Below, in pieces: positions 22,734 to 23,054 of a stretch of 64,000 bases of DNA. Source of the stretch: Escherichia coli. Lineage in GTDB: Bacteria; Pseudomonadota; Gammaproteobacteria; Enterobacterales; Enterobacteriaceae. The translations under genes and the position numbers were made by a program. Below the pieces are notes generated by a model, which saw only the letters and a list, made by a program, of their open reading frames with translations, was not told the DNA's origin and ran no database searches. Each line of letters opens with the position of its first letter. The first letter of the stretch is position 1. Location: NCBI RefSeq assembly GCF_003790525.1, contig NZ_CP033636.1. The stretch is one strand, 5' to 3'.

Positions 22734-23054
22734 ATGAAGTCAGATTCAGAAATGGCTTCTCCTATCGAGTTGCACATTGGCGATCATGTCCAGCGGCATG
22801 GTGCTTTATCTGAGGTCATGCATATTGTTGAATCCAAATGCGATATTCCCGGCGGCATCCGGGTAGCAGCATGCATTTGACGGGTTATCGGTAACGTTCC
22901 GGGCAATATTCCTCGTGGTTGGCTGGAAACACCGAAGCGTATGGCTGAGCGAGGCGTTAAGTGGGCGACGAGTCTGCCCGGAGGGCTTTACTTTAACATG
23001 CAGGGGAACGCACATGCGAAAGTAAGCCGGGTTATTCGTAATGTGACTAACTGA
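22734..23054 (+). pseudogene. small ORF interrupted by one in-frame TGA
   Basis: RBS aaaggtgg before ATG at 22734; the frame stays open for 106 codons apart from a TGA at 22878-22880; same orientation as the island genes. Confidence 0.3.

Follow-up and report, generated by a model that had tools for sequence, protein, structure and literature searches.

A single nonsense substitution very probably made a pseudogene of a 106-codon accessory gene in a major IncHI2 plasmid lineage

An in-frame UGA followed by C, lying within an otherwise open gene, is found at the +1 frameshift site of prfB (RF2), where the sequence is CUU-UGA-C, and published work on termination efficiency in E. coli has made UGA-C known as the leakiest stop context, a weak terminator. 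A comparable arrangement was observed in the window (the whole stretch of 64,000 nt of the Escherichia coli contig NZ_CP033636.1 that was analysed), in which a plus-strand frame is interrupted by one TGA in the context AUU-UGA-C. The closest described sequence is that of WP_000834113.1, which is encoded in one piece by a sister lineage of IncHI2 plasmids, and the closest described structure is domain I of EF-P. The first-pass annotation had reported a frame with a ribosome-binding site (RBS) that stays open for 106 codons except for a TGA at 22878-22880, and both its coordinates and its description were found to be correct when the sequence was read again. The parts of the locus are as follows.

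22734 to 23054, plus strand: open frame of 106 codons, with ATG at 22734, end TGA at 23052-23054 and one internal TGA at 22878-22880
22721 to 22727, plus strand: Shine-Dalgarno-like AAGGTGG, 6 nt from the ATG, read from the sequence and identical in the sister-lineage plasmid pME-1a
22734 to 22880, plus strand: 5′ part that is kept, codons 1-48 and the premature TGA, aligning with residues 1-48 of WP_000834113.1
22878 to 22880, plus strand: premature TGA at codon 49, ancestral TCA (Ser49), with C-to-G at 22879
22881 to 23054, plus strand: 3′ part, codons 50-106 and the original stop, aligning in frame 0 with residues 50-106 of the intact protein
23070 to 23105, plus strand: hairpin from RNA folding, with a GC-rich stem carrying AAAAGT/ACTTTT and then a short U tract, conserved in the sister lineage

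The interrupted frame (22734-23054, plus strand) translates as MKSDSEMASPIELHIGDHVQRHGALSEVMHIVESKCDIPGGIRVAACI, the premature stop, RVIGNVPGNIPRGWLETPKRMAERGVKWATSLPGGLYFNMQGNAHAKVSRVIRNVTN and the final stop. For the 5′ part, RefSeq holds a 48-aa hypothetical protein (WP_001426334.1) in the exact-match plasmids, which covers the first 48 codons only. Because both halves align, in one frame, to the intact 106-aa gene and to its homologues of ~100 aa, the interrupted frame is more than a chance open stretch. The stranded 3′ part (22881-23054) has kept its register but would no longer be translated, and it holds the invariant Y-N-QGNAHA motif of the family. A nonsense pseudogene had been the first choice of the earlier reading, and comparison with the sister lineage and with the homologues supported it; it is very probable that the locus is a pseudogene which arose by one nonsense substitution (S49*, TCA to TGA) and not a recoding signal.

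The window is IncHI2 plasmid backbone. When an 801-nt query (22500-23300) was searched, 985 plasmid records were obtained, 588 of them at 99% identity or more and 394 at 90-95%, and the exact matches were IncHI2A-typed conjugative plasmids (MOBH, MPF_F) that measure 200-300 kb and come from Escherichia and Salmonella. As the first-pass annotation had noticed, the ORF has the same orientation as the island genes, and it lies within a same-strand run of small unannotated genes. The larger features of the surroundings are given below; among them, the three paralogues, the relaxase and the coupling protein are further backbone genes of the IncHI type.

21203 to 22453, plus strand: N6/N4 DNA methyltransferase with an Mrr_N domain, upstream of the ORF and apparently orphan
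25637 to 28021, plus strand: DndC-like/PAPS-reductase-domain protein of 794 aa, downstream of the ORF, with the DndC-like region N-terminal
1118 to 3574 (plus strand), 7768 to 10188 (minus strand) and 13782 to 16199 (plus strand): three paralogues of ~805-818 aa with DUF4165, Big_3_2 and Big_3_3 (bacterial Ig-like)
52304 to 54388, minus strand: TraG-type coupling protein, 694 aa
54388 to 57540, minus strand: MOBH TraI_2 relaxase, 1050 aa

The 794-aa DndC-like protein reached 118 bits, well below the curated DndC cut-off of 290 bits, and no further dnd genes were seen between the methyltransferase and this gene. Farther along the window, two divergent transfer-gene operons were found at 48621-58817 (minus strand, including the relaxase and the coupling protein) and 59522-63881 (plus strand), and the ~700 nt of intergenic sequence between them (58818-59521) make up the obvious oriT candidate.

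In the sister IncHI2 lineage (395 plasmid records, ~92% identical locally), the locus of pME-1a and AR_0365 is a single CDS of 321 nt that encodes WP_000834113.1, a hypothetical protein of 106 aa; examples are pME-1a (NZ_CP041734.1, 242718-243038) and pK29 (NC_010870.1). The two lineages have the same flanks (methyltransferase upstream, a 108-aa gene downstream), RBS, start, stop and terminator hairpin, and their nucleotide alignment ran without gaps across the ORF at 96% identity. They differ, however, at codon 49, which is TCA in pME-1a, AR_0365 and a third sister-lineage locus (L009) and TGA in the window, by a single C-to-G difference at 22879, and also in six residues of the product (T5S, V8A, F26S, T56P, E83G and I89M, from the sister protein to the window allele). 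At more distant loci codon 49 was found to be TCA (L004 and L007) or TCT (L006), and of 13 diverse homologues, 12 have Ser at alignment position 49 and the other has Ala. Since the sister lineage has TCA and the distant homologues have Ser or Ala, the TGA is the derived state, produced by C-to-G. The check that had been recommended, a comparison with homologous loci for an intact codon, was in this way answered by a collinear intact 106-aa gene with TCA (Ser).

A second difference between the lineages was observed ~50 nt ahead of the ORF, at window position 22683/22684, where direct repeats of ATTAAC enclose 15 extra bases in the sister lineage. The intergenic region between the methyltransferase and the ORF is 88% identical between the lineages as compared with 96% for the ORF. 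The 15-bp indel could be a promoter-region deletion that accompanied the gene loss; no sigma-70-like promoter was called upstream of the ORF by a consensus scan of both lineages.

Both parts of the interrupted frame appear as entries of the ORF list, and the first of them is a RefSeq CDS, which would suit two independent short genes of 48 aa (22734-22880) and 37 aa (22941-23054). However, every homologue outside the window lineage was found to be one uninterrupted ORF of ~100 aa spanning both parts, no SD-like sequence stands ahead of the ATG at 22941, and the AlphaFold2 model of the intact protein is one domain to which both halves contribute strands; we see only a minute chance that two genes are the right description. 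The longest uninterrupted ORF of the interval in the window is in fact on the minus strand (101 aa, 22806-23111), and it could be argued that this is the conserved gene and the plus frame incidental. In the six-frame comparison of four homologous loci, by contrast, the antisense ORF was cut to 78, 71, 95 and 73 codons whereas the plus frame was fully open (103-110 codons), and it is the plus frame that shows conservation at the protein level and carries the invariant motifs, leaving practically no room for a minus-strand gene. The two patterns which the first-pass annotation had named as contrary to its own reading, homologues with two short genes and a conserved minus-strand ORF, were thus both missing, the former from the homologues, which show a single gene, and the latter from the four homologous loci.

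A sequencing error had been offered as another option, namely that the true codon at 22878-22880 is a sense codon and that sequencing or assembly went wrong. This gene is not free of errors or rare variants, as frameshifted singletons of the sister allele were seen in metagenome assemblies (P0004, P0008 and P0017), but the identical TGA is present in 586 complete plasmids, which many laboratories assembled independently, the 48-aa product has been recorded for at least 1000 contigs, and the TGA allele co-segregates perfectly with the other lineage-specific SNPs; for all practical purposes, error is ruled out. The allele was counted with two 56-mers. The one that contains no other lineage difference (22837-22892) was matched exactly by 586 records and with one or two mismatches by 395, and the one that spans two lineage-specific SNPs (22860-22915) gave 588 records, 586 of them exact. 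Among the two non-exact records, the one examined (CP075378) has kept the TGA and added A45T at a nearly invariant Ala. No intact 106-codon version with the diagnostic residues of the window lineage was detected, either by BLAST of the lineage 56-mer or among the cluster members (40 of the 144 of cluster 1). S49* is fixed across the whole of a globally spread major lineage of IncHI2 resistance plasmids. The word recent, which had been used of the pseudogene, is therefore right in so far as the mutation arose after the two IncHI2 lineages had parted, but it does not suit an allele that is fixed throughout one of them.

Recoding would mean that the UGA is read as selenocysteine, is passed by programmed read-through or is a prfB-like +1 frameshift site, and that a full-length protein is made deliberately. 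It is true that the downstream frame is open with its register unchanged, and that AUU-UGA-C is superficially similar to the CUU-UGA-C of prfB. Unlike in prfB, however, the homology continues here in frame 0, so that a +1 shift would yield a non-homologous tail; no SD-like AGGGGG is present upstream of the TGA; and the TGA is not conserved in the relatives, as only one young lineage has it, and a sense codon is used by the sister lineage and the distant relatives. The homologues have Ser or Ala at codon 49, never Cys or Sec. The fold of the 71 nt from the stop (22870-22940) was no more stable than that of shuffled sequences (z = -0.42), and the Rfam scan, which covers SECIS, gave nothing at E up to 10; hence the SECIS-like hairpin that it had been proposed to look for downstream of the TGA is not there. 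Recoding had already been placed below the pseudogene as less likely, which these data uphold, and we consider it highly improbable. In view of the UGA-C context it is conceivable that read-through yields a few percent of full-length Trp49 protein; nothing suggests that such read-through is programmed.

The family of the intact protein proved to be small, with 18 matches in a word-indexed search of 5.8 billion clusters and 22 representatives in a full HMMER search of 1.84 billion. Its full-length members, of ~100 aa, came from Salmonella, Xenorhabdus and metagenomic contigs, and the distant homologues (also ~100 aa) showed 52-72% identity. The invariant residues of the family (Y86, N88, Q90, G91, N92, A93, H94 and A95) lie downstream of the premature stop. 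The AlphaFold2 model of the intact protein, built with a 24-sequence alignment, showed one compact domain (mean pLDDT 92, pTM 0.83) with these predicted elements.

Residues 3-8, 18-21, 24-34, 44-51, 86-91 and 97-103: predicted strands
Residues 67-72 and 76-80: predicted helices

The premature stop falls inside the predicted strand 44-51, the fourth β-strand, and the helices and the last two strands are lost with everything behind it. Judged by the model, the 48-aa fragment would almost certainly be unable to fold or to work like its parent protein, and we infer loss of function because a fragment of 48 residues cannot form the single domain.

The ORF also seems to have evolved under less constraint than its surroundings. 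Between the lineages, pN/pS was 0.49 for the ORF (from only 8 non-synonymous and 5 synonymous differences) as against 0.00-0.26 in eight neighbouring genes. When the six residue changes given above were polarised with the family alignment, all of them were unique to the window allele and none to the sister allele, and the positions affected are, in the rest of the family, either conserved or subject to conservative substitution. Three of the six (T5S, V8A and F26S) are borne by the retained stump, and constraint on the 48-aa stump is unlikely because these changes lie in the retained half. The 3′ remnant, on the other hand, has neither a frameshift nor a second stop and the RBS has survived, so that decay has hardly begun, and judged from the sequence alone some residual use of the locus would be conceivable.

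The gene has been inactivated on other IncHI2 backbones too. One knock-out of the sister lineage is Q90*, a CAG-to-TAG change that leaves a product of 89 aa (loci L009 and L010; proteins P0044/P0060), and another is a junction with an IS5-family element after about codon 92, which leaves a product of 100 aa (P0043, at least 24 contigs) and comes with the loss of several downstream small genes. Like S49*, both are independent inactivations of the same gene, but they are limited to minor sub-branches, whereas S49* occupies a whole major lineage. With at least two further independent losses in the sister lineage, the gene is dispensable for plasmid persistence. In pME-1a an IS5-family element was noticed within a 149-aa gene, while in other plasmids such an element borders on the 106-aa gene at codon ~92 and the four small genes in between are deleted, which indicates an IS-mediated deletion of the small-gene block in plasmids of the sister lineage. 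The positions of the element are these.

2501 to 3773 of locus L011: IS5-family element in a sister-lineage IncHI2 plasmid
6534 to 7704 of locus L002: IS5-family element in a sister-lineage IncHI2 plasmid

Repeated loss, together with the hosts of the allele, raises the question of whether the stump is a functional neo-product or whether the loss itself was selected, for example as an adaptation to Escherichia and Salmonella hosts. The fragment retains the well-conserved N-terminal half with its RBS and start, and the records of the TGA lineage come from Escherichia (313), Salmonella (236), Klebsiella (23) and Enterobacter (3), although 233 Enterobacter records are included among all IncHI2 matches of the 801-nt query. 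Against a neo-product, the fragment ends within a β-strand of a single domain, and T5S, V8A and F26S, as well as the A45T of CP075378, affect conserved positions of the very half that is retained; against selected loss, the host skew between the alleles is confounded with hundreds of other differences between the lineages and cannot be attributed to the S49* gene. A neo-product or a selected loss is, in our judgement, quite improbable. The loss would appear to be neutral, and there is but a slim chance of a wider alternative, in which the intact protein is an establishment or anti-defence factor that affects host range and its loss was not neutral. One possibility under this alternative is that a move of the lineage into Escherichia and Salmonella hosts brought selection for S49*, the repeated knock-outs hinting at a cost of the gene, and another possibility is that the leaky UGA-C stop keeps up a trickle of full-length protein, so that S49* would be a dosage-reduced allele.

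Behind the ORF, the first-pass annotation had described a palindrome and promoter module. The hairpin is real (23070-23097, followed by GUCGUUUUCC), but a promoter was not found by the consensus scan. The stability of the hairpin is modest (-11.6 kcal/mol, z = -1.49) and it was not called by a consensus terminator scan; it is probably the intrinsic terminator of the gene, an assignment for which the evidence is weak. An exact palindromic core of 14 nt, AAAAGTTACTTTTC, was found at 18866-18879 and again at 23078-23091, both intergenic, with a third copy of 86% at 25678. The copy at 23078 makes up the loop-proximal portion of the hairpin behind the ORF, and the motif may be a shared terminator or regulatory element of this gene block.

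Taken as a pseudogene, the locus would have the following history. The IncHI2 ancestor would have carried a 106-codon gene in the same-strand run of small accessory genes between the methyltransferase and the DndC-like gene, and in the window lineage, whose hosts are mostly Escherichia and Salmonella, TCA (Ser) at codon 49 would have become TGA. Translation that begins at the unchanged RBS would then end after 48 residues, presumably with RF2 reading the stop, and the S49* allele would have spread with its lineage. For annotation, this means that WP_001426334.1, entered as a hypothetical protein in hundreds of IncHI2 plasmids, should be recorded as a pseudogene of WP_000834113.1. In typing, position 22879 (C or G) can serve as a lineage marker that cleanly separates the Escherichia/Salmonella-associated from the Enterobacter-associated IncHI2 lineage. 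By its three independent knock-outs the gene is marked as dispensable, as are several small neighbours in the IS-deletion variant, which is useful for the dissection of the IncHI2 backbone. For biology at large S49* is of little import: as a loss-of-function allele it is routine, and the accessory gene concerned is uncharacterised.

As to the intact protein, no paper was found in a literature search on WP_001426334.1 and WP_000834113.1, and the family had no match in Pfam, PHROGs, NCBIfam, PADLOC or the PDB sequence profiles. The contigs of the distant homologues resemble mobile elements, and the homologues are set there in rows of small genes, unannotated and all on one strand; the Xenorhabdus homologue adjoins a DndB-like gene, and on another contig a cytosine methylase is encoded at a distance of 4 kb. 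These neighbours, and the methyltransferase and DndC-like genes of IncHI2, hint at an accessory neighbourhood of establishment or anti-defence genes. Because its best structural match is EF-P domain I and its accessory neighbours are of the DNA-modification type, the protein could possibly be an unrecognised plasmid establishment or anti-defence factor.

By its model, the intact protein is predicted to be a small, soluble, single-domain, β-rich KOW/SH3-like barrel, and the family is rare, folds confidently in the model and is an orphan. Its similarity in fold to EF-P domain I is present, and the matched N-terminal KOW-like domains of EF-P, eIF5A and EfpL (PDB 8s8u_B, 6j7m_M, 5wxk_B and 8put_E) share 12-15% identity with it. 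With 24 family members, no match to Pfam, including EFP_N/KOW, was obtained even at E up to 10, and hhalign of the family alignment with an E. coli EF-P sequence gave a probability of 0.2%, with no profile-level similarity. Membership of the EF-P/eIF5A family was therefore rejected, the resemblance being one of fold only, to the very common SH3-like barrel. The modifiable Lys/Arg that EF-P carries at its loop tip is not conserved across the wider family of the 106-aa protein, in which the loop residues vary. Unlike EF-P, which continues into domains II and III (OB-fold), the intact protein is a stand-alone protein of ~100 aa that has an extra helical and two-strand part at its C-terminus.
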